A DNA stretch of 64,000 bases from a virus (IMGVR_UViG_3300043255_000003:7224-71223), one strand, 5' to 3'; shown: positions 3,090-58,600, counted from the stretch's first letter. The notes: generated from the sequence alone by a model not told the origin. Translations and numbers: made by a program.

Positions 3090-5590
3090 GTCGCGATGGT
3101 GTCAGAGGTACGAATAGCGGCCTGTGACAGCCCACCAGTATCGACGGTGTTCTCAATCTCGAACGGCAGGATCGGATCAACCGAGCCACCGTTGCGTACC
3201 CTGATGAGCACCGGAATGTCGGCGAGGTACACAAGGTTTGCCGAGGACACGTTCACAGGATCACCACCTGTTGCGATGACATCCAAGATCGGGACGTATG
3301 CCGTGTCGGCAGCATTCAGATCGTAAGGTACCGCGTTGATGGCGTAGGTGTCGGAACCACCCCAGTCATCGCCCGTGCCACCAGTCAGCGGCGTGTGTGT
3401 GATTGAGGTCGCACTGTCGATCGAGGTGATGACGCCCCATGACGAGTCGGTGATGTTCAGGATGATGTCACCGACGATCGGATCGTCGGTCGCATTGGTG
3501 AAGTTCGCCGAGGTGTCAATCAAATTCGTGCCGGTCCCATCTGCCGTGGTCACGCCCGTGCCTTCGGCCACGTTCGCAAGCGTCGCTTCAGCACCCGTGA
3601 ACGACGCATAACGGAAGCGCAGTTCAACGATGTTGACCGTGTCAACGACGCGGATGGTGCCGGACTCTGGCGTGTCATTCGGGAATGACGAATCCACTTC
3701 GATGATCACGTCGCCCTCACCATTGTTCGGGCCTGACGGTGCAGCGATGCCATGCTGGGCACGATCGATCTCGCCGGACGGGGCATCCAGTACAAAGATG
3801 CCAACGCGATCTGCGTCTGTGCCGTTCACACCAGTGATCGTGGCGTTGATAAACAGCGGTGGGCTTCTAACCGTGCCGTCATCATCAACCAACTGGAACG
3901 CCTGCACGTCATCGGCATGCACGTCGGTCAGCACCACACCGGGCGCACCAAAGAAGGTGCCACCAGCGAAGGTTCCGAACGGCGAAGATTTCGGCGTGGT
4001 GATCGTGCGTGTCGATGCCACCGTTGCAAAGTCGGTGTAGGACCCCTGAGTCGCGTTGTCACCAACCTGCGTGATCGTGTTGCTGGTGAAGAACCGCGTG
4101 TTGCGCATGATCAGGTCGCCGGTTGCGCCATCATCATGGTCGGCAACGACCGTGCCTTGCGCGACCAGTGCGTCGCCACTGTCATGGAAGTACAGCACTT
4201 CGCCTTCAACGAACGCGCCGGTCTGGGTGTTGTACTCGGCCTGCAGGTCTTCGCCGATGTATTGCTCGCCATTGATGCCCTCGGCATCGAAGACGAACGT
4301 AGAAGCGCCACCGCGACCGCGCCTGCATTCTGCTTTCACGAACTCGTACAGGTCAGCAACGGTGTTGCCCTCGGCATCGATCGCGATCGAGTACGGGAAT
4401 GCTGACTGACCACCACCGAGGGACACGTCCGTAGCAGCGAACACCACCAGCGGATCAGTGCCCAGTGCTGCCGGGCCGATGTCGGTCGGCGCAACAGCGG
4501 TGGCAACTTCAGCGGAGGTCTGGCCAGTGAATTGCCCGGTCGCGCCAGAGAAGTCTGCCAAGGCTGGGCCGATCAGGTAATAATCAATCGTGAGGTCAGG
4601 TGGCGTGCCAGACGATGCGGTCACGATACCTTGGATGGTGTCATCGGAATCATCCTCGATGACCTCGCCTACGGTGAATTGCCCGGTTGGCCCAACCGAC
4701 ACGACCTGCCGACGCAAGCCCGTCGCGTTGTTCAAGTCAGCACCTGTCGCCAACGGAACCGGCTGTCTGCCGCCCGTGGTCAGATCGATGATGAAGTTGT
4801 CATACGCTGAACCGTACTGGCGGGCGAACACCGTGATCTCGGCGTCATCGATCTCGACACTGGTGGCCAGCACCTTGACCAGAATGTCGATCTGGCCTGC
4901 GCTCCACCAGCGATTCGTTGCGCCGACCTCGCGGCCAATCAGTTCAGCGCCGTCCTGATAGATGTACAGAGTCGTGTTGGCAAAGATCGTGCCCAGTGTG
5001 AACACGTTCGTCCACAGGGACTCGCCGGTTTCCGACGCCACGCCGCCGCCCGAGGCTGCTGCATAGGTATCGGTGAAGTCACCCGCGCCAGAACCGGCTG
5101 TCGTGAATGCTTCGGTCGATGCGTCATCGAACAGGTCGGTGACCGGATCGTCAGGACGTATCCACACCACGCCAGTCTCGGACGCGTAGCGTTCATCGAA
5201 CGCCATGATGGTGCCGGTGTCGCCGGTCGTGGTACCCGTGATGGTCAGGCCGATGTCACTGGTCGCGAACATGGTGCCCGCGCCTGTCGCATCGAAGGAG
5301 ATCGCCCGGATCTCACCAGACGCCCAGCCCGAGGTGGCGAGCGCGCCGCCTGTCAGGTACTGGGTAGACTCATCATCGATGAACCACTGGTTGATCAGCG
5401 TGAACGCGGTCGGTGTCTGGGCAGACATCGGGACCGGATTATCCATCTGGTCCGGCTCATCGAACAGATCTTGCAGCGCCGAATACAGCGCCAGCGTGGT
5501 GTCAGTTACCGTTGGGGTTTCAGTTGTGTCGCGAAAAATCGCCTTCCGCGTGTAATCAACGTCCCAACGATTGCCTAAAAATGTGCCCAT
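3086..5590 (-). CDS. Large virion structural / tail protein
   Basis: 834 aa, acidic and G/T/D-rich beta-type composition. Own RBS (GGGAG) and a 100-nt upstream intergenic region. Confidence 0.65.
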   Translation of the reverse strand: MGTFLGNRWDVDYTRKAIFRDTTETPTVTDTTLALYSALQDLFDEPDQMDNPVPMSAQTPTAFTLINQWFIDDESTQYLTGGALATSGWASGEIRAISFDATGAGTMFATSDIGLTITGTTTGDTGTIMAFDERYASETGVVWIRPDDPVTDLFDDASTEAFTTAGSGAGDFTDTYAAASGGGVASETGESLWTNVFTLGTIFANTTLYIYQDGAELIGREVGATNRWWSAGQIDILVKVLATSVEIDDAEITVFARQYGSAYDNFIIDLTTGGRQPVPLATGADLNNATGLRRQVVSVGPTGQFTVGEVIEDDSDDTIQGIVTASSGTPPDLTIDYYLIGPALADFSGATGQFTGQTSAEVATAVAPTDIGPAALGTDPLVVFAATDVSLGGGQSAFPYSIAIDAEGNTVADLYEFVKAECRRGRGGASTFVFDAEGINGEQYIGEDLQAEYNTQTGAFVEGEVLYFHDSGDALVAQGTVVADHDDGATGDLIMRNTRFFTSNTITQVGDNATQGSYTDFATVASTRTITTPKSSPFGTFAGGTFFGAPGVVLTDVHADDVQAFQLVDDDGTVRSPPLFINATITGVNGTDADRVGIFVLDAPSGEIDRAQHGIAAPSGPNNGEGDVIIEVDSSFPNDTPESGTIRVVDTVNIVELRFRYASFTGAEATLANVAEGTGVTTADGTGTNLIDTSANFTNATDDPIVGDIILNITDSSWGVITSIDSATSITHTPLTGGTGDDWGGSDTYAINAVPYDLNAADTAYVPILDVIATGGDPVNVSSANLVYLADIPVLIRVRNGGSVDPILPFEIENTVDTGGLSQAAIRTSDTIAT

Positions 5591-7997: not shown

Positions 7998-8347
7998 AGT
8001 CGCCGCTCCCGGTCATGCAGCACTATGGCTGCAGCAGAAACCCCGAACAGTGTTCGCACCGGGTTCGCAGTGACAATCCTGACTGACACGTCATGCGGTG
8101 TCTTTGCCAACACATCATGGCTGCTGCGCCCGAACACGTAGGTCGCGGTTTCCAGATGCTCAAACTCGTCAAGCGTTAATTCGCCCCGCTCATCGAACGC
8201 CACCACAGGGCCATCAAACTGGCAATCATCTGCGCTGTCGATCATCTGCAATTCCGCATCATACGATCCGCACACCTCTGCCCACTGACACTTGTCCAGT
8301 TTGGGTGCGCCCCACCTGCTGTCTCGATAGGCAACGACCGTGATCAT
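7994..8347 (-). CDS. SPOUT (SpoU/TrmH-like) methyltransferase-fold protein
   Basis: C-terminal half TYVFGRSSHDVL...VSVRIVT...TLFGVSAAAIVLHDR parallels the SPOUT trefoil-knot motifs (xxFGxExxGL...VxIP...SLNxSxAAAIxLYE). ATGA overlaps on both sides. Confidence 0.55.
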   Translation of the reverse strand: MITVVAYRDSRWGAPKLDKCQWAEVCGSYDAELQMIDSADDCQFDGPVVAFDERGELTLDEFEHLETATYVFGRSSHDVLAKTPHDVSVRIVTANPVRTLFGVSAAAIVLHDRERRL

Positions 8348-21094: not shown

Positions 21095-22600
21095 TCAGAC
21101 GGTGCGCCAGTTCGTGGCTTTGCGGCGTTTGCTCTTGACCTGCGACTTAGCTTTCCAGCCGACGGCGAAGGTCTCGAAACTCTTCGATGGGTGCGAAGCC
21201 CAGTCGTGGTGGGCCTTGCTCTTGAAGGTTCCGAGTTTTTCGTCCCACTCTTTTCGGTAATGCTCCAGACCTTTGATCAGATCCGCGCAGTTGGTCTGGT
21301 CGATCCAGCATGTCGGCAACACGTTGCGCACAGCCTCGACGCCGTCCATCTCGTCCTCGATGCGGGCGACCACTCGCAACGGACGCAGCCCCAGTTTCTG
21401 CAGCGTCTCGCGGCGTGACACGCCCGTGCCCATTTCGCGCACCTCGACATCGTGCGGCAGGAAGTGCTGCCCGTAGGTGTACGGTTTGTCCTGCAGGTGC
21501 TTGACGTAGTGAGACAGCGACTCGCCAGTGTTCGAGTAGTAATCGATGAAACGGTTTTCCATGCCGTATCTCTGATGGAAGCAAATACAGGTTTCGTCGT
21601 TCATCCCGAGATCCCAAAATGTATTTACGGGAAGTCGCGGCTCATAAGGCACGCGACAGATGTGCTTCTCCTGTCGCAGCCAGTTCATCTGCTGCTTGTA
21701 GAACGCACCCTCGATGCTGGCGCGGAACGCTTCGTCTGGTGTGGACGGGTACTCACGCAACATGAACTCGCCCTGCTCGGCGCGCTTCTTCACGTACCAC
21801 AGCCGCTGACCCAGATCGATCTTCTGGCCGATCTCCGCTTCCAGCTTGAGGAAGTACGTCAGGTCGTCGCGAGTCATGATCACGCTGTCCTTCGCGGACT
21901 CTGGCAGACGGTACTGGTTCTCACGCCACCACGGGAAGAAATGGAACCGCCAGTCGAGCGTGGTCGGGATCAGCCCCATGCGCTCGTTGTTGCGCGCCTC
22001 TTCGCAGATCTCATGGAAGTGACCGAACGCACCTTCGGCAGTTGATTCGATCGTGACTGACTGACCTGCTTGGACTGTGTTCAGGGCACCCGTGCGCACC
22101 TCGGCAGCTTTCTCAGGATACTTTGCGCACAGCTTTCCGTACTCGGAGATGTGCAGGTAGTTCAGCGTTCCAGAACGCATCGATGTGCCGACGCGGATGC
22201 TGGAGTGATTCGAGAACATATACTCGTTGCTGGTGTCCTGCGTAGGGTGCAGGAAATTCTTGATCTGATCGGGCAGGTGCTCGAACGGATACTTGACCTT
22301 GGTTTGGAAAATTACTTTCGCGTCGTCGCGAGTGTGGGCGATGATGCCGCAGCGGGTGTCAGGATAGAAGGCAGCGTTATCAAGTAACAGGATGTCCAGA
22401 AACGTCGTCATCCCCAACTGTCTCGCCTTCAGGATCACGTTCATAAACCAGAAGTTTTCCAGCAGTTCCTGCTGCGCCCAGTTGAGACGGAAGCGGACCT
22501 GCTCGCCCTTCTTGTCCTGAATCAAGTACAGGTTGTTCAGACGCCAACCCTGATCCTGAAACTGGTCTGCCAGTTGCGCTAACTGTGTTGAGTCTTCCAA
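21095..22600 (-). CDS. terL: Terminase large subunit
   Basis: VILKARQLGMTT (Walker A region), LHISEYGK, VTIESTAEG and TFWDLGMND nuclease motif. Probable TTG start at 22600, 8 nt after GGGAGG. The ORF track start is 22627. Confidence 0.92.
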   Translation of the reverse strand: MEDSTQLAQLADQFQDQGWRLNNLYLIQDKKGEQVRFRLNWAQQELLENFWFMNVILKARQLGMTTFLDILLLDNAAFYPDTRCGIIAHTRDDAKVIFQTKVKYPFEHLPDQIKNFLHPTQDTSNEYMFSNHSSIRVGTSMRSGTLNYLHISEYGKLCAKYPEKAAEVRTGALNTVQAGQSVTIESTAEGAFGHFHEICEEARNNERMGLIPTTLDWRFHFFPWWRENQYRLPESAKDSVIMTRDDLTYFLKLEAEIGQKIDLGQRLWYVKKRAEQGEFMLREYPSTPDEAFRASIEGAFYKQQMNWLRQEKHICRVPYEPRLPVNTFWDLGMNDETCICFHQRYGMENRFIDYYSNTGESLSHYVKHLQDKPYTYGQHFLPHDVEVREMGTGVSRRETLQKLGLRPLRVVARIEDEMDGVEAVRNVLPTCWIDQTNCADLIKGLEHYRKEWDEKLGTFKSKAHHDWASHPSKSFETFAVGWKAKSQVKSKRRKATNWRTV

Positions 22601-35235: not shown

Positions 35236-35265
35236 TTGACAGGAACGCGTTCTGGGCAGTATGGT
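35236..35265 (+). promoter_or_regulatory. Sigma70-like promoter of the early operon
   Basis: TTGACA (35236-41), 18 nt, TATGGT (35260-65). The spacer contains the palindrome GAACGCGTTC, and the hairpin GGTCGCAAGCGACC follows. Confidence 0.6.
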
Positions 35266-35643: not shown

Positions 35644-35931
35644 ATGGACGGTTTAGTTTTCGGATTGATCGACAACGGCGTGCTGATTCTCGGCGCGTAC
35701 ACGGGTCTGGAAATCGATCGGCTGTTCAACGGTCGCGGCGCACTCGGTGCCGTGATCGGTGCAGGCGTCGGCAACACAATCAGCGACGGTCTGGGGGCGG
35801 CACTTGATCCGACTCTCAACGGCGCACTGATCGGCATCATCGCCGGTTGCATCATCCCGCTGTTCGCCATCCCGGTGATCGAGTGGTTCAAGGCCAATCA
35901 GGCCAGCAGAAAGGAGCAAGGACAATCATGA
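35644..35931 (+). CDS. TMEM65-like small multi-pass membrane protein
   Basis: FGLIDNGVLILGA...GAVIGAGVGNTISDGLG parallels TMEM65 FGFxDNxxMIxAG...AAAxGNxxSDxxG. Confidence 0.55.
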   Translation: MDGLVFGLIDNGVLILGAYTGLEIDRLFNGRGALGAVIGAGVGNTISDGLGAALDPTLNGALIGIIAGCIIPLFAIPVIEWFKANQASRKEQGQS

Positions 35932-36986
35932 AACAGACAGCACAATTTGCGCAGGCCACGCCTGCAGTTTTACTTCAGTCTCTTCGAGCATGCGTGCTCG
36001 CAAAACGCCCTGCATTTACTTGGGGCAATCCGGGCATCGGCAAATCAGATCTGCATCGCAGGCTGGCCGATGATCTGGGCCGGGAGATTTTGGACCTGCG
36101 TGCATCGCAGTGGGACGCCGTCGATACTCGCGGCATTCCGCACGTCATCGAACGCGACGGCGAGACGGTCACACGCTGGGCCATCCCGGATATTTTTCCG
36201 ACTGATCCCAACAGCACCACGATCATTTTTCTGGATGAACTGAACAGCGCCGCGCCGAGTGTGCAGGCTGCCTTGTACCAGTTAATTCTGGATCGCAAGC
36301 TGGGCGAATATCATCTCCCGGACGGCGTCGTGATTCTGGCGGCTGGCAATCTCGAAACGGATCGAGCGGTCACGCACCGAATGAGTTCGGCGCTGGCTGA
36401 TCGGTTTTTTCACTTCCAGTTGCTGGTCGATAATTCAGCATGGGAAGCATGGGCGATCGATCGCGACATCCACATCGCGGTGCTGAGTTACCAGCGGTGG
36501 CGTCCGAGTCACCTGCACTCATGGGACCCGAAGTCGCCGAGCAAATCGCAGGCCACACCACGCGGCTGGGAATACGTCAGCGACGTGTTGAAAGTCATCG
36601 AGGCCGAAGGCATCAACGGCGAAGTCGAGGCCACTTTGATCAGCGGCAAACTGGGCGAGGCAGTCGGTGCCGAGTTCATCGGCTTCCTGAAAATTTACCG
36701 CAACCTGCAGGACCCTGACGCGGTGATTCTCGACCCGGAGCAGGCCACCATCAGCGACGACCCGGCTGTCAATTACGCGCTCTGCGGCGCACTGGCCGAG
36801 CGTGCCAGCGACAGCAACATCGACCGCGTGATCCGGTACGCCGAGCGGCTGCGAGATGATCCGAAGGCGGGCGCTGAGTTCATGACTCTGCTGGTCCGAC
36901 AGGCTGCAGCCCGCAAGCCGGAAGTTCAGCAGACTCTGGGCTTCATCAAGTGGGCCACCGCGAACAAGGAGGTGCTGATCGCCTGA
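35928..36986 (+). CDS. MoxR-like AAA+ ATPase
   Basis: Walker A GNPGIGKS, Walker B IIFLDELN, ILAAGN and SALADRF arginine-finger region. Start MKQTAQ at 35928. Confidence 0.88.
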   Translation: MKQTAQFAQATPAVLLQSLRACVLAKRPAFTWGNPGIGKSDLHRRLADDLGREILDLRASQWDAVDTRGIPHVIERDGETVTRWAIPDIFPTDPNSTTIIFLDELNSAAPSVQAALYQLILDRKLGEYHLPDGVVILAAGNLETDRAVTHRMSSALADRFFHFQLLVDNSAWEAWAIDRDIHIAVLSYQRWRPSHLHSWDPKSPSKSQATPRGWEYVSDVLKVIEAEGINGEVEATLISGKLGEAVGAEFIGFLKIYRNLQDPDAVILDPEQATISDDPAVNYALCGALAERASDSNIDRVIRYAERLRDDPKAGAEFMTLLVRQAAARKPEVQQTLGFIKWATANKEVLIA

Positions 36987-37048
36987 GTCGAAACGGGCTT
37001 CGGCCCGTCTGCCGGTGACTGACCGCCCGGCACTGATGAGACAGGTCA
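36982..37048 (+). ncRNA. Type II hammerhead ribozyme HH1
   Basis: GUC-GAAAC-GGGC(uucg)GCCC-GUC^-UGCCGG(11 nt)CCGGCA-CUGAUGA-GAC. All core nucleotides are canonical. Predicted cleavage after C37009. Loop I UGACC can pair with the 3' GGUCA. Confidence 0.92.
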
Positions 37049-37070
37049 CAACGAGAAAGGAGAAAGGAAA

Positions 37071-37961
37071 ATGGAAACCAAACGACAGCAAGAACTGCTG
37101 ATGATTGTTCGGCTTTCGATCCACCAATGGTACCCGCGCAAGTTCGACAAAAAGGCGACGCGGGATCTGGCCAGCTTGCACGGCGTCAGCGCCGACCGAG
37201 CCGGACGGTTCAACAAGATTCTGGTGGATCTGGAATCGATCAAGCCACTGCAGCAACGTCTGCGAAAATTACGCGATGATCATTACGCCATGACTGCCCC
37301 ATGGGCCGACGGTGGCGAGCGCGTGTTGCCAGCAGGTTTGTACTTCGACTACGTCGCGATGGTTCGCGATGCGGAGATCGACATCGCGAGACTGGCCGAC
37401 GATTACGTCATCCAGTACAGCAGCGAAGTCGATCGCGCCCGGACTGAGTTGAACGGACTTTTCAACGAGGCCGACTATCCGCCAGCGAGCGAACTTCGCG
37501 AGCGGTTTGGAGTCGGCACCAAGTTCGAGCCACTGCCGAATCCTGAAGACGTTCGAGTCTGGGGCATCGGCGAAGAGGCAGCCGAAGAGATCCGCGACCA
37601 AGTGATCGCGAGTCAGCAGACCGCCGTCAAAGAGGCGCAGGACAACGTGGTTTCTCAGGTCACTGAGCGAGCACGCGAGTTCATCTCGAAGGTCCGCAAG
37701 TACGACGCACAGGTCAGCGAAGATGTGAAGGGCGCGAGGCTCTACGACAGCGCGCTGACTAACCTGTCCGACGTTGTCGGTTTGGTCCTGCAAGGGCTGA
37801 ACATTACCGGCGATCAGGAACTGCAGAAACTGGCCGAGGATCTGAGCAAAGAGATCCACAGCCTGAACGCAGACAAGCTGAAAAATTCTCAGCCGACTCG
37901 CGAAAAGAAAACCGAGGCGGTCGAGAAAATCATCGGCAAATTTTCAGGAGTGTACGGATGA
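37071..37961 (+). CDS. Conserved phage protein accompanying AAA/vWA (DUF3150-like)
   Basis: 296 aa helical, with YAMTAPWADGGERVLPA and LFNEADYPPASELRERF, between the AAA and vWA genes. Confidence 0.6.
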   Translation: METKRQQELLMIVRLSIHQWYPRKFDKKATRDLASLHGVSADRAGRFNKILVDLESIKPLQQRLRKLRDDHYAMTAPWADGGERVLPAGLYFDYVAMVRDAEIDIARLADDYVIQYSSEVDRARTELNGLFNEADYPPASELRERFGVGTKFEPLPNPEDVRVWGIGEEAAEEIRDQVIASQQTAVKEAQDNVVSQVTERAREFISKVRKYDAQVSEDVKGARLYDSALTNLSDVVGLVLQGLNITGDQELQKLAEDLSKEIHSLNADKLKNSQPTREKKTEAVEKIIGKFSGVYG

Positions 37962-39370
37962 AAAATTCAATCCACGATCTGGCAGTGCAAGCCGAAAAGA
38001 AGTTGCGAAACCAGCGCGCTCAAGTCGTGCAATCGCATCCTTTTTTCGGGGCGCTACTGCTGAAGCAAAAACTGGTCGCGACGACCGACGTGCAGACTCT
38101 GGCCACGAACGGCAAAGAGTTATTTTTCAATCCCGAGTACGTCATCAATCAGCGGCCTGAGTACCTGCAATTTGATTGCGCTCATGAGGCACTGCATCCC
38201 GGACTCGGTCACCACACGCGACGCGGCGGTCGCCGATTCGACTGGTGGAACGAGGCATGCGATCTGGCCATCAACCCGGTGCTGAAAGAGGCCGGGTTTC
38301 ACTTCCCGCCTGATGCGCTGTTTCGAGAGGACCTGATCGGCGAAGGTGCCGAGCACATATTTAAGGTGCTGGAGGGCGAGCGCAGGCCAGACCCTGACGG
38401 CGACGATCAGGACGACAGCCCCGGCGCTGGTGAGGACACGTCCGAGCCACCTCCGCCCCCGCAGCCACTGCCGCCTGAAGAGTCCGACGACCAGTCCGAC
38501 GAATCCGGCGACGAGGGCGACGCAGGCGACGGTGACGAGGGCGACGACGGCGACGGGTCCACTGGCGAAGGCCAGCCGGACGACTCGGCAGAGGGCGACT
38601 CAGGAGGCGAGGGCGACGGGTCTGGCGAAGGCCAGCAGGTGCCCAGCTTCGGCGGTACTGGCGCAGTGCTCGACGCCCCGGTCGAGAGCGAGGCCGAGCG
38701 AGTCGCCGAGGAAAACGACTGGAAGGTCGCCGCGACTCAGGCAGCGAATCTGGCAGCAGCACAACAGGCGGGTGATCTGCCCGGCGCGCTGCAGGCTCAA
38801 CTCGATGCACTGACAAAGCCGAAAGCAAACTGGCGCGAACTGCTCCGACGCTACATGGATCAATTCGCGAAATCAGATTACACATGGTCGAAGGGCAACC
38901 GCCGATTTTTAGGACAGGGCACCTACCTGCCGAGTCTGCAATCGGAGCAGTTGCCGCCGGTACTTTTTGTGATCGATACCTCCGGGTCCATGCCTGCCGA
39001 TGCACTCGAACAGGCAGCCGGTGAACTGCAGTCGATACTCGATGAACTGCAGCCGGAATACATCGATGTGATCTGCCACGACACGCGGGTCCATGGCGAC
39101 GCGCAGCGGTTCGAGCCGGGCGAAGATCTGGACATCGAAATTCGCGGCGGTGGCGGCACGCGGTTCGCACCAACCTGCGACTGGATCGCCGACTCGGACG
39201 AGGACTACGCGGTCGTGATCTGGTTCACTGACCTGTACGTCAACGACTGGGATCGATGCGACGAGCCGGACATCCCGGTGATCTTCATCGACTACGCCAA
39301 CCGCGAGGACGGCGAAGAGGTCGCGCAGTTCGGCGACGAGGTGATCGGATTAGAAGACGACTGGTCATGA
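37958..39370 (+). CDS. DUF2201-type metallopeptidase plus vWA domain protein
   Basis: HPFFGALL, TLATNG..LFFNP, zincin motif AHEALH, an acidic linker, MIDAS VIDTSGSM, GGGT and IWFTD. Confidence 0.88.
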   Translation: MKNSIHDLAVQAEKKLRNQRAQVVQSHPFFGALLLKQKLVATTDVQTLATNGKELFFNPEYVINQRPEYLQFDCAHEALHPGLGHHTRRGGRRFDWWNEACDLAINPVLKEAGFHFPPDALFREDLIGEGAEHIFKVLEGERRPDPDGDDQDDSPGAGEDTSEPPPPPQPLPPEESDDQSDESGDEGDAGDGDEGDDGDGSTGEGQPDDSAEGDSGGEGDGSGEGQQVPSFGGTGAVLDAPVESEAERVAEENDWKVAATQAANLAAAQQAGDLPGALQAQLDALTKPKANWRELLRRYMDQFAKSDYTWSKGNRRFLGQGTYLPSLQSEQLPPVLFVIDTSGSMPADALEQAAGELQSILDELQPEYIDVICHDTRVHGDAQRFEPGEDLDIEIRGGGGTRFAPTCDWIADSDEDYAVVIWFTDLYVNDWDRCDEPDIPVIFIDYANREDGEEVAQFGDEVIGLEDDWS

Positions 39371-39423
39371 GGACCAGCACGCGAAACAGCCACGCGCCGT
39401 TGGCTGGGAAAGGAGAAAGGAAA

Positions 39424-39729
39424 ATGAAAAAAGCACGCACGCTGAAAGACATCGAACAGCATCCGCTGGTCGAGTCTACCCACACCGAGTGGGATGGCTG
39501 CTTCACTGATTCATGGGGCCGCGAAGTTCAGGGCCGCTGGGTGTATCTGCGACGCGGGTACATCACGGATCAGATGGAGTGCGGCACGATTCATGAGCGG
39601 TCGATCAAGGACTGCTGCGAACTGGTGAACAGCGCCAGACGTGTCACCCGCGATGAAGTTATCGCGGCCTACAAGACCGACCTGTCGGTCGAAGAGTTCG
39701 ACGCCATGGAGTGGGTCGAGGGAGCATAG
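39424..39729 (+). CDS. Hypothetical protein
   Basis: Start MKKARTL after the stereotyped RBS, 101 aa. Its stop codon overlaps HH2 stem II. Confidence 0.6.
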   Translation: MKKARTLKDIEQHPLVESTHTEWDGCFTDSWGREVQGRWVYLRRGYITDQMECGTIHERSIKDCCELVNSARRVTRDEVIAAYKTDLSVEEFDAMEWVEGA

Positions 39730-39784
39730 TCGAAACGGGCAGCGGTGCCCGTCGTCGTCAAACAGGCGACCTGATGAGACTTGA
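39728..39784 (+). ncRNA. Type II hammerhead ribozyme HH2
   Basis: AGUC-GAAAC-GGGC(agcggu)GCCC-GUC^-GUCG(ucaaacagg)CGAC-CUGAUGA-GACU. Predicted cleavage after C39753. Confidence 0.93.
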
Positions 39785-39799
39785 AAGGAGAATGGAAAA

Positions 39800-40186
39800 A
39801 TGAGAACGGAAAACAAAAAACTTGATGCAGGATTTTCGCAGGTCGCGATCTGGCCGGGCACGACGCTCGAAGAAAATCAGGTCGATGACTTTGTGAAGTT
39901 CTTCGCGGACGAGGGCTTCCGAATTCAGTATCTGGAAGAGGTCACCACGGCACCTGATCAGAACGGCGGCGAGCCGGTCCCTGACACGGGCGGACGCGTC
40001 GATCAGTTCTTCGCGGTGCATGGGGATGACATCTCGAAGTTCGCCGTCTGGCGGCTTCAGCTTGGCATACGCTGGATCGAGGATGCGATCAGTTCGGTCA
40101 ACGGGTACCAGTCGAACCCCATCTATCCTGAACGTGTTCTGGAGTACGCGTCATGGAGCACGGCGAGCGCCGACGAGGGCCAGTAG
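39800..40186 (+). CDS. Hypothetical protein bracketed by HH2 and HH3
   Basis: 128 aa (DQFFAVHGDDISKFAVWRLQLGIRWIED) with a strong RBS. Confidence 0.7.
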   Translation: MRTENKKLDAGFSQVAIWPGTTLEENQVDDFVKFFADEGFRIQYLEEVTTAPDQNGGEPVPDTGGRVDQFFAVHGDDISKFAVWRLQLGIRWIEDAISSVNGYQSNPIYPERVLEYASWSTASADEGQ

Positions 40187-40239
40187 TCGAAACGCCCTGC
40201 GGGGCGTCGTCGTCAAACAGGCGACCTGATGAGACTTGG
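40185..40239 (+). ncRNA. Type II hammerhead ribozyme HH3
   Basis: AGUC-GAAAC-GCCC(ugcg)GGGC-GUC^-GUCG(ucaaacagg)CGAC-CUGAUGA-GACU. Predicted cleavage after C40208. Stem III covaries with HH1/HH2. Confidence 0.93.
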
Positions 40240-40253
40240 AAAGGAGAATGGAA

Positions 40254-40520
40254 ATGCGAGACAAGACAGTCAAAACTGAAAACGACAAGTGGGTGATCGA
40301 ACTGGAAGACGGCAGCATCGGCGAGTCCGTAACCATCGGTGAGATCGAACGACAGCGCGATAAGGACACGATCACCAACCGACCCTACACCTACTATGTG
40401 GTGACGCTCGGCGGTGGTCACCGTAACGAGTATCTGGGCACTGGTGAGACGCTGACCGAGGCGAAAGAGATCGCCCGCGACAACGTGTACGAGACACTGA
40501 AATCTGCCGGATTCTTTTGA
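40254..40520 (+). CDS. Hypothetical protein
   Basis: Start MRDKTVK after AAGGAG, 88 aa. Confidence 0.6.
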   Translation: MRDKTVKTENDKWVIELEDGSIGESVTIGEIERQRDKDTITNRPYTYYVVTLGGGHRNEYLGTGETLTEAKEIARDNVYETLKSAGFF

Positions 40521-55600: not shown

Positions 55601-58600
55601 TGGCTCATTGAACTCTCTGGCCAGACGCTCCAGTGCTGCGCCGACCTGCTCATCATTGCCAGCCTTGCGCAGATCCTTCAGGTTGTCGGACGCGAGGAAG
55701 TCGTTGTACTCCTGCGAGTTGCGATCGACACCGATGCCACCCGCTGCCAGCGCCCGCATCTGTGCGCGACGACGGCTGGCTCGGATCATGCCCATCACTT
55801 CGCTGCTGCCGGGTACGGTTTTGAACCCCAGCTTCTGAACGAACGCCTTGATCTGCGCGATGATCTCTTGCATGGCACCGTTGCGAGTGGCCGAGGTCTC
55901 TGCCATGTACGCGATCACCTCTTCAACGAACACCTCTGGCTTGACAGTGCCGCGACTCTCCACCGCTTCGACCGCACGCATCAGCACCTCGTCCGTACCA
56001 CGATCGATCATCGCTTGGACCTGCGACTGAACCGCGTCGAAGTTTGGCAGCGTGCGCATCGAGTAGTGACCGAACACTTCGTGCATGATCACCCGCTCTG
56101 CATCGGCAGCGTTGTGCAGGTTGTCGGCGACGATGTGAACCTCGTTGCTGCTCGGTGAGAACACACCCTTGATGCGTGTGCCCCGGTTCTTCATGCGAGC
56201 AGGCAGGTCGGACACCGACTGCACTACCTTGATCCTGACCACTGAGTTCATGGTCTGGATGATGTCGATCACCGCCAGACGTGCGTCGTCTGCGTCCATG
56301 CCATCAGCTTCTTTATCGCGACGCTTCGGATCTGTGTACCGAAGGATGCGATCGTCCGCACTCAGGAGTTCGTCTGTCTCTTTGGCGTCACTAAGCTGGG
56401 CTGCTGCACCCGAAGCTGCTGCCGCAGGCCGATCAACCTCGGCGACTGTGGACTGGATTCCTCCAGCGTTGATATCTGCTTCTGTAAGGATCGCACCTGT
56501 AGCTGATTTCCCGGCGGCGGCGGCTTGCGCGGCGGTGTTTGGATTGCCATTAGATTTTGCCCTCTCGATTGCGGCGATGAGTTCCGAGTCAGGAACCTGT
56601 TGCCATGTGTTCAGGTCGATGCCTGCGGTGGGATCACGCTGCTGATCGAACGCGAGCAGCGCCTCGGTTTCTTCCAGCGCGATCAGGATGTCTTTGACAT
56701 CGACGGCACCTTCGTCGGGCACGAACCCGTTCTCCCCGTTCTCCCCGAACTCACCAGTCAGCGATCGATACATTGCATCGGCGACGTTGATACGGATCTC
56801 TGAGTTGAACTGCTCGTCGGTGATTGTGATGCCAAGTTCCGCCGTCAACATGCGGCCCACCCGGAACGCCACCTCTTCCCACTCGATCGCACGCTGCGCT
56901 TCCATCAGCGTTAGCGGCTCAAGCGGAACCTTTACTGCCTTGCCTTTCTTGCCACGCAATCCCTCATAGTCTCGACCCAAGCGACCGTAGCGTTTGCTGT
57001 CGCCATACTTGGTCTGCATGAACTGCTCGGTGATGCCGTGAGCCATCTCATGCGAGACACGCCATGCCAGCGTGTAGGCCGAGTCCTTGAATGAACCTTC
57101 GGAGTTGCGCGGATCATAAATCCACACCGTGCCGTTCTCGTAACCGTCTTTGTTGAGACGCGGGATGTTCACCTCGACGTTCTTTGCCGGGTTGGCTTTG
57201 AACGAAAAGAATTTTACGAGGTACCCGTGTTGCGCAGCTTGGTCGAGCACCTGCTGGGGGTCGGCTGTCAACTGCTCCAGCGGATAGATCTTGAGTTGTT
57301 CCTGTGTGTTCTTCCCTGTGAACGTGCCGAAGCGGCCAGTGATTTCTACGATTGCTTGTCCGAACGTATCGATCAGTCGAGCCAAGGGTACTGGTGCCCT
57401 AATGGGCCTTGGTTCGGATCTTTCCGCTTCTCTTTTTGCGGCTTCGGCCTTGCTTCTGCTGGTGACTTCGCTGGCGACTTGGTTTGAGATCCCGTCGAGA
57501 ACTTTCCGCCGACTACGAAGCCACGGGAGTATATCGGCGAATCCGGCTTCGCTAATCTTATCTTCAATCCACCGGCCTTCCGGGTCGGTGTCCCAGCTTT
57601 CGTCGTTCGGTCCTTCGCCATGGTATTCACCCTCTGCTCTGAACTCTTCGATTATATCAACGTCACCAATCTCACCGTCGATGGAGTTGGCGAAATCTAG
57701 GAACAACCCACGGAATGTAGGGTCCGTTATTCCGTGTAACGACTTACCTGTTTCCGTGTTCCTGAAGTTGATGAACGCGTACTCACCCGGCGCGGTGCGA
57801 GTGAACCCGCCATCGCGATCAACCATGGCTGTCAGGCGGCTGAACATATCCTCTTCCTGCGCCGCCGTCAGTTCATCGGTGAACGTGATGCTGAAGCCAA
57901 CGCTCTTGTCCGCGCCGGTCAGGTTCGGCGCGGCCCTGAACCACGGCACTGCGTCCTGCCGGAACAGGTACTGCGATGCCAGTGAGTACGCGTCCACCTG
58001 TTGCCGACTCGGTGCAGTTTCACCCGTCTCTTGCGATGCCAGCACGCCGCTCAGTCGTAACGGGTTGATGGTCCGCTCACCTTCTTCAGTGACATAGCCA
58101 CCTGTCTCTGTCTGCTGCGTGCCCAGTTCAATACCCAGTTGTGCGGCCAGCAGATCCTCGCCCTGTTCGCCGGTCAGGTTCTCGCCGATGAGCCTGTCGA
58201 GTGTCAGCTTATCCTCGAAGGTTGCCCCTTGCAGTGCCTTACCAATGTCCAGCTTCGTGGACGGCACCGTCTCAGCGGTCGAGAATTGACTGCGTCGCTT
58301 GAGGTTTGTCTGGAAGTCCTCGGACTTTGGCACGAACTCATCAAAAATGGTCTTCGGTTTGTTGTTCGCTGACTTCTTGAGTTGCTGCGCCAACTGTTTT
58401 TTGTTCAGCTTGGCGAGATTTTCTTCCTTCAGCTTGTTGTTTAGCACGCGTATGCTTTCGATCAACTGGCCCTTGCTGTTGTCGGTGGCCAACGCCCGCA
58501 CTGACTTGGCTTGTCCGATCGCAGTCACACCAGCTACCCGTTCTTGCTTGGCTTGAGCCTCATCGTTCTTGACCTTGGTCCAGACAGCGGCCTGCAACAT

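Follow-up and report, generated by a model that had tools for sequence, protein, structure and literature searches.

Type II hammerhead ribozymes and their pseudoknot were described by Perreault et al. (2011; PMC3088659), who found them in phages clustered around single genes or short gene blocks and proposed that long transcripts of phages are divided in this way into operon- or gene-length mRNAs. Cleavage was shown in vitro for three of these clusters and in E. coli for one (PMC3088659). The idea of processing and differential stability was repeated, and noted as unproven, in a 2019 review (PMC6765202), and three type II hammerheads near phage-like genes were found active in vivo in Desulfovibrio vulgaris (PMC8782182). 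Here, we analyze a stretch of DNA of 64,000 nucleotides (nt), referred to as the window, which belongs to an uncultivated phage of marine sediment and comprises bases 7224-71223 of the IMG/VR virus record IMGVR_UViG_3300043255_000003 (71,223 base pairs (bp), rated 95% complete). Three type II hammerheads, termed HH1, HH2 and HH3, are found on the sense strand of one co-oriented block of non-structural genes, all within 3.3 kb, where they flank one three-gene block and one single gene. We consider it likely that they are genuine ribozymes and that they would cut the transcript of the block after C17 into units with uncoupled stability and yield. A sequence-only reading made before this analysis had seen a self-processing phage mRNA in this arrangement. 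It is supported in part, by the type II class, the sense strand and the co-oriented junctions, but the idea is not a novel one, having been published in 2011 (PMC3088659).

Type II hammerheads at three gene junctions

A descriptor of the hammerhead (CGAAAC, 8-30 nt, GTC, 10-40 nt, CTGATGA) matched the 64 kb exactly three times, always on the + strand (36989-37039, 39731-39777 and 40188-40232). Shuffled sequence is expected to give 0.02 matches, and none of 100 shuffles reached three. A stricter descriptor, which demands the core together with pairing in all three stems, returned the same three elements only when both strands of the window were scanned. By sequence reading the core is complete in each of them (CUGAUGA, GAAA, the A15.1-U16.1 pair and C17), and the helix listing agrees. 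Checked position by position, C3 U4 G5 A6 N7 G8 A9, G12 A13 A14, A15.1-U16.1 and H17 were found in all three.

The elements share a single order, namely the 5' strand of stem II (GUC or AGUC), GAAA, the stem III hairpin, C17, the stem I hairpin, CUGAUGA and the 3' strand of stem II. Loops cap both stem I and stem III and stem II is open, which is the type II topology. Stem I has 6 bp, stem II has 3-4 bp, and stem III, a G+C-rich hairpin closed by A15.1-U16.1, has 6-7 bp. There is no mispair, and the pairs beside the core (10.1-11.1, 1.1-2.1 and 15.1-16.1) are standard. Folded in isolation, each element takes the three-way junction as its minimum-energy structure. The sequence-only reading had described three complete type II hammerheads with canonical core and closed stems, each set between stop codon and ribosome-binding site (RBS) at a gene junction, and all of this was confirmed.

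Each element begins at the stop codon of the preceding gene and ends shortly before the next RBS. The stops (TGA 36984-86, TAG 39727-29 and TAG 40184-86) overlap stem II's 5' strand or lie right beside it: the TGA of g1, first of the genes g1 to g6 listed in Table 1, adjoins HH1, and the G of the TAG of g4 is base 2 of the stem II strand AGUC of HH2. An AAAGGAG RBS follows each element, with the ATG 8-9 nt further (37071, 39800 and 40254). The leaders at 37057-37070, 39411-39423, 39784-39799 and 40240-40253 are stereotyped and purine-rich, and each contains the GGA motif twice (AAAGGAGAAAGGAAAATG or AAAGGAGAATGGAAA). This leader is found both with and without a preceding hammerhead, there being none before g4.

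How usual this layout is was judged by scanning IMG/VR for type II hammerheads that share the GUC/GAC stem II, which gave at least 120 stretches and 130 copies with enough flanking sequence (L004-L123); several of the listed contigs carry 2-7 hammerhead copies. An upstream open reading frame (ORF) of at least 50 codons has its stop ending -8 to +1 nt from the ribozyme in 82% of these 130 listed hammerheads, compared with 6% of random positions, and an ORF starts 3-70 nt downstream in 88%, compared with 46%. Both occur together in 72% of the listed copies and at 2.7% of random positions. Among the 107 listed hammerheads with an upstream ORF, the stop ends -2 to +1 nt from the first G of GUCGAAAC in 88. 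The commonest arrangement, in which the last base of the stop is that first G, accounts for 38 of the 107 and is also the one seen in HH2 and HH3. Because stop and start coincide in this way so much more often than at random positions, the design of stop codon, hammerhead, RBS and ATG is the norm among phage type II hammerheads and not a peculiarity of this locus. As a separate observation, stem II is routinely built into the stop codon in the listed sample, which could couple folding to translation termination.

Relatives of the locus were obtained by fetching contigs of g2 and g5 homologues, and protein identities are given relative to the window proteins. Where g2 is 63-74% identical, all the fetched relatives have kept a hammerhead at the junction between the ATPase gene g1 and g2 (ATPase|g2), in other sequence forms with GCC/GGC stem II and an extra U. 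In L127 (g2 74%) this element scores 48.2 bits and a second one lies at g2|g3 (33.5 bits), L147 (73%) has one before g2 (42.3 bits) and another after it (39 bits), and L149 (63%) has one directly before g2 (56.5 bits). The pairing between loop and tail of these junction hammerheads co-varies by eye, from UGACC/GGUCA in the window to UGGUU/AACCA in L147 and UGAUC/GAUCA in L149. A contig of run X4 also has a hammerhead at ATPase|g2, an HH3-like one. In two further contigs (L129/L130, g5 83%) one hammerhead lies right after the VWA gene (g3) and another after g5, the latter being the orthologue of HH3. It differs from HH3 by U to C at N7, C to A at H17, U-A to U-G in one pair and C-G to U-A in stem I. 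Going by the known positions of change, these are differences of the kinds that a working hammerhead would tolerate, including one compensatory change in stem I. Such comparisons argue that the ribozymes are under selection for their fold, and they point to ATPase|g2 as a preferred hammerhead site.

Hammerheads cleave 3' of position 17 in a Mg2+-dependent reaction that leaves 2',3'-cyclic phosphate and 5'-OH ends. When the + block is transcribed, each element would fold and most likely cut itself after C17 (37009/37010, 39753/39754 and 40208/40209), at the positions predicted earlier. Cut position and end groups are taken here from hammerhead chemistry, and cleavage in the cell, with its purpose, is what we infer. 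The upstream product would have the stem III hairpin at its end, bearing a 2',3'-cyclic phosphate, and would keep its stop codon, 23-26 nt from the new end, so that termination would be normal. The downstream product would open with the stem I hairpin and its 5'-OH, and the RBS behind it would be free. The operon would in this manner fall into a 5' unit whose last gene is that of the ATPase, an internal unit of 2744 nt (g2, the VWA/DUF2201 gene and g4), another of 455 nt (g5) and the rest.

Decay by RNase E or RNase J that depends on a 5'-monophosphate starts poorly from a 5'-OH hairpin, and 3' exonucleases are hindered by a hairpin at the 3' end. The units would likely acquire independent lifetimes and yields, with the message of the ATPase separated from that of its VWA partner. 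The purpose may be to set the relative amounts of the messages.

Contrary observations and alternative explanations

Several observations weigh against transcript cutting by all three elements, the first of them being their scores. The gathering cut-off of Rfam RF02276 (Hammerhead_II) is 37 bits. HH1 passes it with 42.5 bits, in keeping with the class assigned earlier, but HH2 (23.2 bits, surfacing only in the scan of a 200-nt stretch) and HH3 (23.4 bits) fall below it. These low scores are due to a short stem I, whose 6 bp (GUCGUC/GGCGAC, including a U-G pair) close a 5-nt loop. The sequence-only reading was right about the variation of stems III and I, although it had counted only four pairs in this stem.

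A scan of IMG/VR for the stem I apex plus core (GTCANNNAGGCNNNCTGANGAGAC) gave 19 stretches with 18 distinct sequences, every one of which is a complete type II hammerhead. Features that were not part of the search pattern (AGUCGAAAC, the stem III hairpin, GUC and three more stem I pairs) are present in all of them. The signature of this subtype is a GUC-ANNYA-GGC apex, an invariant U-G pair and a GACUU tail (L132, L035, L133, L118, L135, L139, L143 and 11 further IMG/VR loci). In the subtype alignment 99.3% of the cells are paired, compared with 26-45% when the partners are slid by 1-3 columns. Both sides vary in 8 of the 15 pairs, no unpaired cell occurs in the three varying stem I pairs, and core position 7 takes all four bases.

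A model of the subtype (R1) was built from these 18 sequences of unrelated IMG/VR contigs alone. It gives 66.9 bits to HH2 (E 1e-16), 71.3 bits to HH3 (E 6e-18) and 33.3 bits to HH1, with the caveat that 19 of its 55 positions match by construction since the set was picked with a pattern derived from HH2 and HH3. With Rfam, subtype members on other contigs likewise reach no more than 26-31 bits or are missed, and therefore the shortfall probably lies in the Rfam model and not in the HH2 and HH3 copies. The subtype thus escapes annotation at the Rfam cut-off and clusters of this kind are undercounted; here, one of the three ribozymes would be seen.

The exact 28-mer covering stem I and core of HH2 and HH3 had no match in IMG/VR. 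Another R1 match in the window (56682-56730, - strand, 12 bits, E 0.57) was rejected as weak. So was a third weak Rfam match (21344-21413, - strand, 15.1 bits), which lies inside a structural-gene ORF and lacks the CUGAUGA box. No twister, pistol, hatchet or other ribozyme family was found in 30-50 kb, even at E up to 10. One subtype contig (L035:31-2580) combines its short-stem-I hammerhead with a Twister-P5 match of 44.8 bits, above the Rfam cut-off, in one 3-kb stretch. Sub-threshold matches to pistol (31.7 bits), twister-P1 (29.1 bits) and RAGATH-36 (36.1 bits) lie there too, an instance of the known clustering of self-cleaving ribozyme classes.

The second contrary observation concerns the pseudoknot, which had been proposed earlier for all three elements. 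As a criterion of the type II class, this contact should have at least 4 pairs, and it occurs in the majority of type II examples, but not in all. In HH1, the loop bases UGACC (37020-24) can form five pairs with GGUCA of the tail (37044-48). At least five complementary bases between loop I and tail were found in 61 of 140 distinct IMG/VR type II hammerheads, compared with 9 expected with swapped tails, and this enrichment agrees with the published pseudoknot (PMC3088659). Falling in the enriched class, the putative HH1 pseudoknot is supported at the family level. The complementarity in HH2 (4 bases) and HH3 (3 bases) is at the chance level of swapped tails. The corresponding pairings, UCAA/UUGA and UCAA/UUGG, were rejected against the 18 subtype members. 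They are unsupported because, in addition to their chance-level complementarity, the third tail base varies (G, A, C, U) opposite a proposed partner C that never changes. The conserved apex and GACUU tail of the subtype suggest a different contact, or none. In published work on mutants, cleavage became 20- to >100-fold slower at 0.5 mM Mg2+ once the tertiary contact was lost (PMC3088659). Given such a loss and no pairing beyond chance, HH2 and HH3 could be slow or conditional.

Folding in context is also unfavorable. With 60-120 nt of flank, nearest-neighbour folding leaves the short stem II out of the best fold, and with 120 nt the best fold around HH3 retains no hammerhead pair; these models disregard co-transcriptional folding and tertiary contacts, and long-context folding is uninformative for a short stem II. 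Moreover, hammerhead positions shift among close relatives, and no junction but ATPase|g2 is strictly conserved. Over short evolutionary distances single copies change place, are swapped and disappear, and a remnant at 39381-39410 may be one such loss. Finally, what purpose hammerheads serve in bacteria and phages has yet to be proven in the literature (PMC6765202).

These points bear on the alternatives to unconditional cutting. The best placed of them is that cleavage is conditional: a ribosome that terminates at the stop would sit on stem II, GAAA and half of stem III and keep the ribozyme from folding, and cutting would depend on upstream translation, Mg2+ or a protein. It would account for the stops that overlap or abut stem II in all three elements, and for the similar placement of stops in the listed IMG/VR sample (within -2 to +1 nt in 88 of 107, and the exact overlap in 38). 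HH2 and HH3, which have no pseudoknot above chance, would be slow in any case, and regulated cutting of slow phage variants has been raised before (PMC3088659). However, the tight packing may merely reflect compaction of phage genomes. The polymerase precedes the first ribosome and the ribozyme is complete within ~55 nt of the stop, so that it may cut before the ribosome arrives. In addition, tested prophage clusters cut efficiently during transcription with no factor (PMC3088659). We regard conditional cleavage as rather unlikely, with a small but appreciable probability.

It was also considered that hammerhead and RBS together are mobile or recombinogenic junction modules at the boundaries of mosaic cassettes, with RNA cleavage being secondary, or that the 455-nt RNA is circularised by a host RNA ligase. 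HH2 and HH3 are identical over 34 nt (39750-83 and 40205-38), as direct repeats on either side of a single gene. What follows the HH3 orthologue in L129 is a gene unrelated to g6. One relative, a contig of run X4 with ~85% DNA identity, has 283 extra bases between HH2 and g5, an HH3-like element has been placed at ATPase|g2 in a relative (the same X4 contig), and hammerhead positions vary among close relatives. Yet the compensatory stem changes, and core changes confined to tolerated positions, point to selection on the RNA fold and not to mere DNA identity. Spliced or circular products were sought from such clusters and none was found (PMC3088659). A role as recombination linker would, besides, be compatible with RNA processing. 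As a replacement for transcript cutting, these modules appear improbable.

That HH2 and HH3, or all three, are inactive relics keeping the consensus through recent descent is quite improbable as well. Their scores below the Rfam cut-off would fit, and the probable relic in the g3|g4 gap indicates that decay occurs in this operon. However, all core positions and core-adjacent pairs are intact, the subtype recurs in 18 distinct unrelated contigs with the varying stem I pairs unbroken, and the L129 orthologue has diverged without breaking its fold. As for chance matches in G+C-rich sequence, the core motifs are short and CTGATGAG alone occurs at chance frequency, but this origin is refuted by the descriptor statistics, the strict descriptor and the R1 scores, and by stems that all pair, at sense-strand gene junctions throughout and conserved in relatives, which leaves it a negligible probability.

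Gene block, surroundings and distant relatives

We therefore retain three self-cutting hammerheads as the likely account of the locus, and describe its setting here (Table 1). The + strand block spans ~35.2-52 kb and is flanked by - strand structural genes (portal, tail and a 3129-aa protein), as seen from AT skew and ORFs. The sign of the AT skew flips near 34-36 kb, and gene orientation and skew make the + strand the sense strand for the hammerhead block. The block also encodes a methyltransferase-like protein, an exonuclease, a RecT-like protein and an SbcC-like protein. Judged only from gene content (MoxR-like ATPase, VWA protein, methyltransferase and exonuclease/RecT), its designation as an 'early' operon would be reasonable. 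Only 3 of ~25 junctions in the block have a hammerhead; HH1 parts the ATPase gene from g2-g3-g4, and HH2 and HH3 bracket g5 alone.

Table 1. Hammerheads, genes and other features of the block, in window coordinates
Feature	Coordinates	Strand	Parts or basis
HH1, type II hammerhead	36986..37050	+	Rfam RF02276; stem II 36987-89 with 37040-42; GAAA 36990-93; stem III 36993-37008; C17 37009; stem I 37010-15 with 37027-32; CUGAUGA 37033-39
HH2, type II hammerhead, short-stem-I subtype	39728..39786	+	Rfam and R1; stem II 39728-31 with 39778-81; stem III 39735-52; C17 39753; stem I 39754-59 with 39765-70; CUGAUGA 39771-77
HH3, type II hammerhead, short-stem-I subtype	40185..40243	+	Rfam and R1; stem II 40185-88 with 40233-36; stem III 40192-207; C17 40208; stem I 40209-14 with 40220-25; CUGAUGA 40226-32
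Sigma-70-like promoter match (TTGACA, 18 nt, TATGGT), head of the + block	35236..35265	+	Consensus match only
g1, MoxR-like AAA ATPase	35847..36986	+	Pfam AAA_5/AAA; phrog_1297 ATPase, E 8e-92, aligned from residue 30
g2, 296-aa protein	37071..37961	+	ORF list; RBS GGAG 37059-62
g3, DUF2201_N putative metallopeptidase and DUF2201 VWA-like protein	37958..39370	+	Pfam E 8e-39 and 8e-17; phrog_1314
CGAAAC plus 5-bp hairpin (AGCCA/UGGCU), g3|g4 gap	39381..39410	+	Sequence reading
g4, 101-aa protein	39424..39729	+	ORF, in frame with 39256..39729
g5, 128-aa protein, bracketed by HH2 and HH3	39800..40186	+	ORF list
g6, 88-aa protein, first gene downstream of HH3	40254..40520	+	ORF list

The real start of g1 may lie ~30 codons inside the annotated frame. 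The start of g3 overlaps the end of g2 by 4 nt. Neither g2 nor g4 had a match in Pfam or PHROG. A protein search gave 44 homologues of g2, which in the fetched contigs always lies between the ATPase and the DUF2201 gene, and 38 homologues of g5, none of them in any named family. The scans for promoters and terminators were at background level. With 5 sigma-70-like sites found and 5.9 expected, the promoter match is weak evidence by itself, and no convincing terminator was found between the ribozymes. The CGAAAC and hairpin in the g3|g4 gap come without stem I and without a CUGAUGA box, and are followed by the same 19-nt RBS leader as that of g2. They are possibly what is left of a hammerhead that the relative L129 has complete at its g3|g4 junction.

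Most sampled words of the window were present in DNA runs that are marine sediment metagenomes or one unspecified metagenome; no RNA run was found to contain this sequence. Within the VWA gene, contigs of all four metagenome runs pile up, break and vary in length at 38376-38559, an acidic repetitive linker rich in GACGA/GGCGA. Being variable and of low complexity, this region draws in unrelated sequence. A blastn search of 35.8-41.3 kb against 50,697 deposited phage genomes gave no match, and back-translated peptide searches (g5 and g2 in IMG/VR, g2 in JGI metagenomes) gave no confirmed relative.

The more distant fetched relatives differ at the same junctions. No hammerhead was present in L148, L124 and L128 (g2 59-56%), which have a long hairpin twice, at ATPase|g2 and after the VWA gene. 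At these two junctions L125 (g2 53%) carries another pair of hairpins, and it has a hammerhead upstream of its ATPase gene (42.4 bits). In L126 (g2 53%) the ATPase|g2 gap is only 11 nt and holds no hammerhead, and none was found in L131 (g5 60%). In the relatives with hairpins (g2 53-59%), the pair of g2 and VWA gene is thus bracketed by two long hairpins where closer relatives have hammerheads (L124:5930-5975 and 8225-8265; L128:2525-2570 and 5000-5040; L148:1225-1265 and 3560-3590; L125:5935-5975 and 8295-8335). The hairpins of L124, L128 and L148 share a conserved loop, ACA(U/G)GGACG, on stems that differ in a compensatory way; the pair in L125 is of another kind, with CAGAGCGGCCTGGCT in common.

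As a counterpart of the ribozymes, these hairpins may serve in protein-dependent processing or stabilisation. It is tempting, although doubtful for now, to see the hammerhead as one of several interchangeable 'punctuation' modules in this phage lineage. If the hairpins are indeed protein-dependent processing or stabilising sites, they would amount to a natural swap experiment, and the role of bacterial and phage hammerheads would become directly testable.

Comparison with known systems

The practical value of this locus lies in a recurrent subtype that is under-scored by Rfam, in the layout rule from stop codon to RBS, and in the hairpin replacement of the relatives as a way to test the role of the ribozymes. 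Compared with RF02276, core, topology and helices agree in all three elements, with the gathering score passed by HH1 and HH2 and HH3 remaining at 23 bits.

In the early mRNA of T7, host RNase III cuts an intercistronic duplex and leaves 5'-phosphate and 3'-OH ends. The present locus resembles these sites in that intercistronic structures would split a polycistronic early transcript into discrete mRNAs with hairpin ends. Unlike in T7, the RNA is predicted to cut itself and to carry 5'-OH and 2',3'-cyclic phosphate ends. The likeness is therefore one of workings and not of family.

The HHphage ribozyme of haloviruses HF1 and HF2 is found 13 nt ahead of the gene that opens an early polycistronic transcript, whose mapped 5' end is at most 3 nt from the cut site (PMC3088659). 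It differs from the present elements in that it occurs once, has a variant core and belongs to a virus of archaea, and a salt-dependent role was proposed for it. The hammerheads of Desulfovibrio vulgaris, studied by cyPhyRNA-seq, are likewise type II and near phage-like genes, with two of them close together (PMC8782182). There, fragments with 2',3'-cyclic phosphate and 5'-OH ends were captured from cells, and the loci are chromosomal in a cultivated bacterium, whereas here the evidence is sequence.

The prophage clusters of Perreault et al. (PMC3088659), such as the triple arrangement around ardA in Agrobacterium tumefaciens, show several hammerheads on one strand within a few kb, flanking single genes or short blocks whose identity varies, as does the locus described here. 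The latter differs in its phage and genes (MoxR ATPase/VWA), in having two of three elements from the short-stem-I subtype with no evident pseudoknot, and in being known so far as DNA sequence. The type II topology, the pseudoknot between loop I and tail predicted for HH1 and the proposed role in transcript cutting are the same. This phage is thus an ordinary example of an arrangement known since 2011, and adds one more phage to the class.

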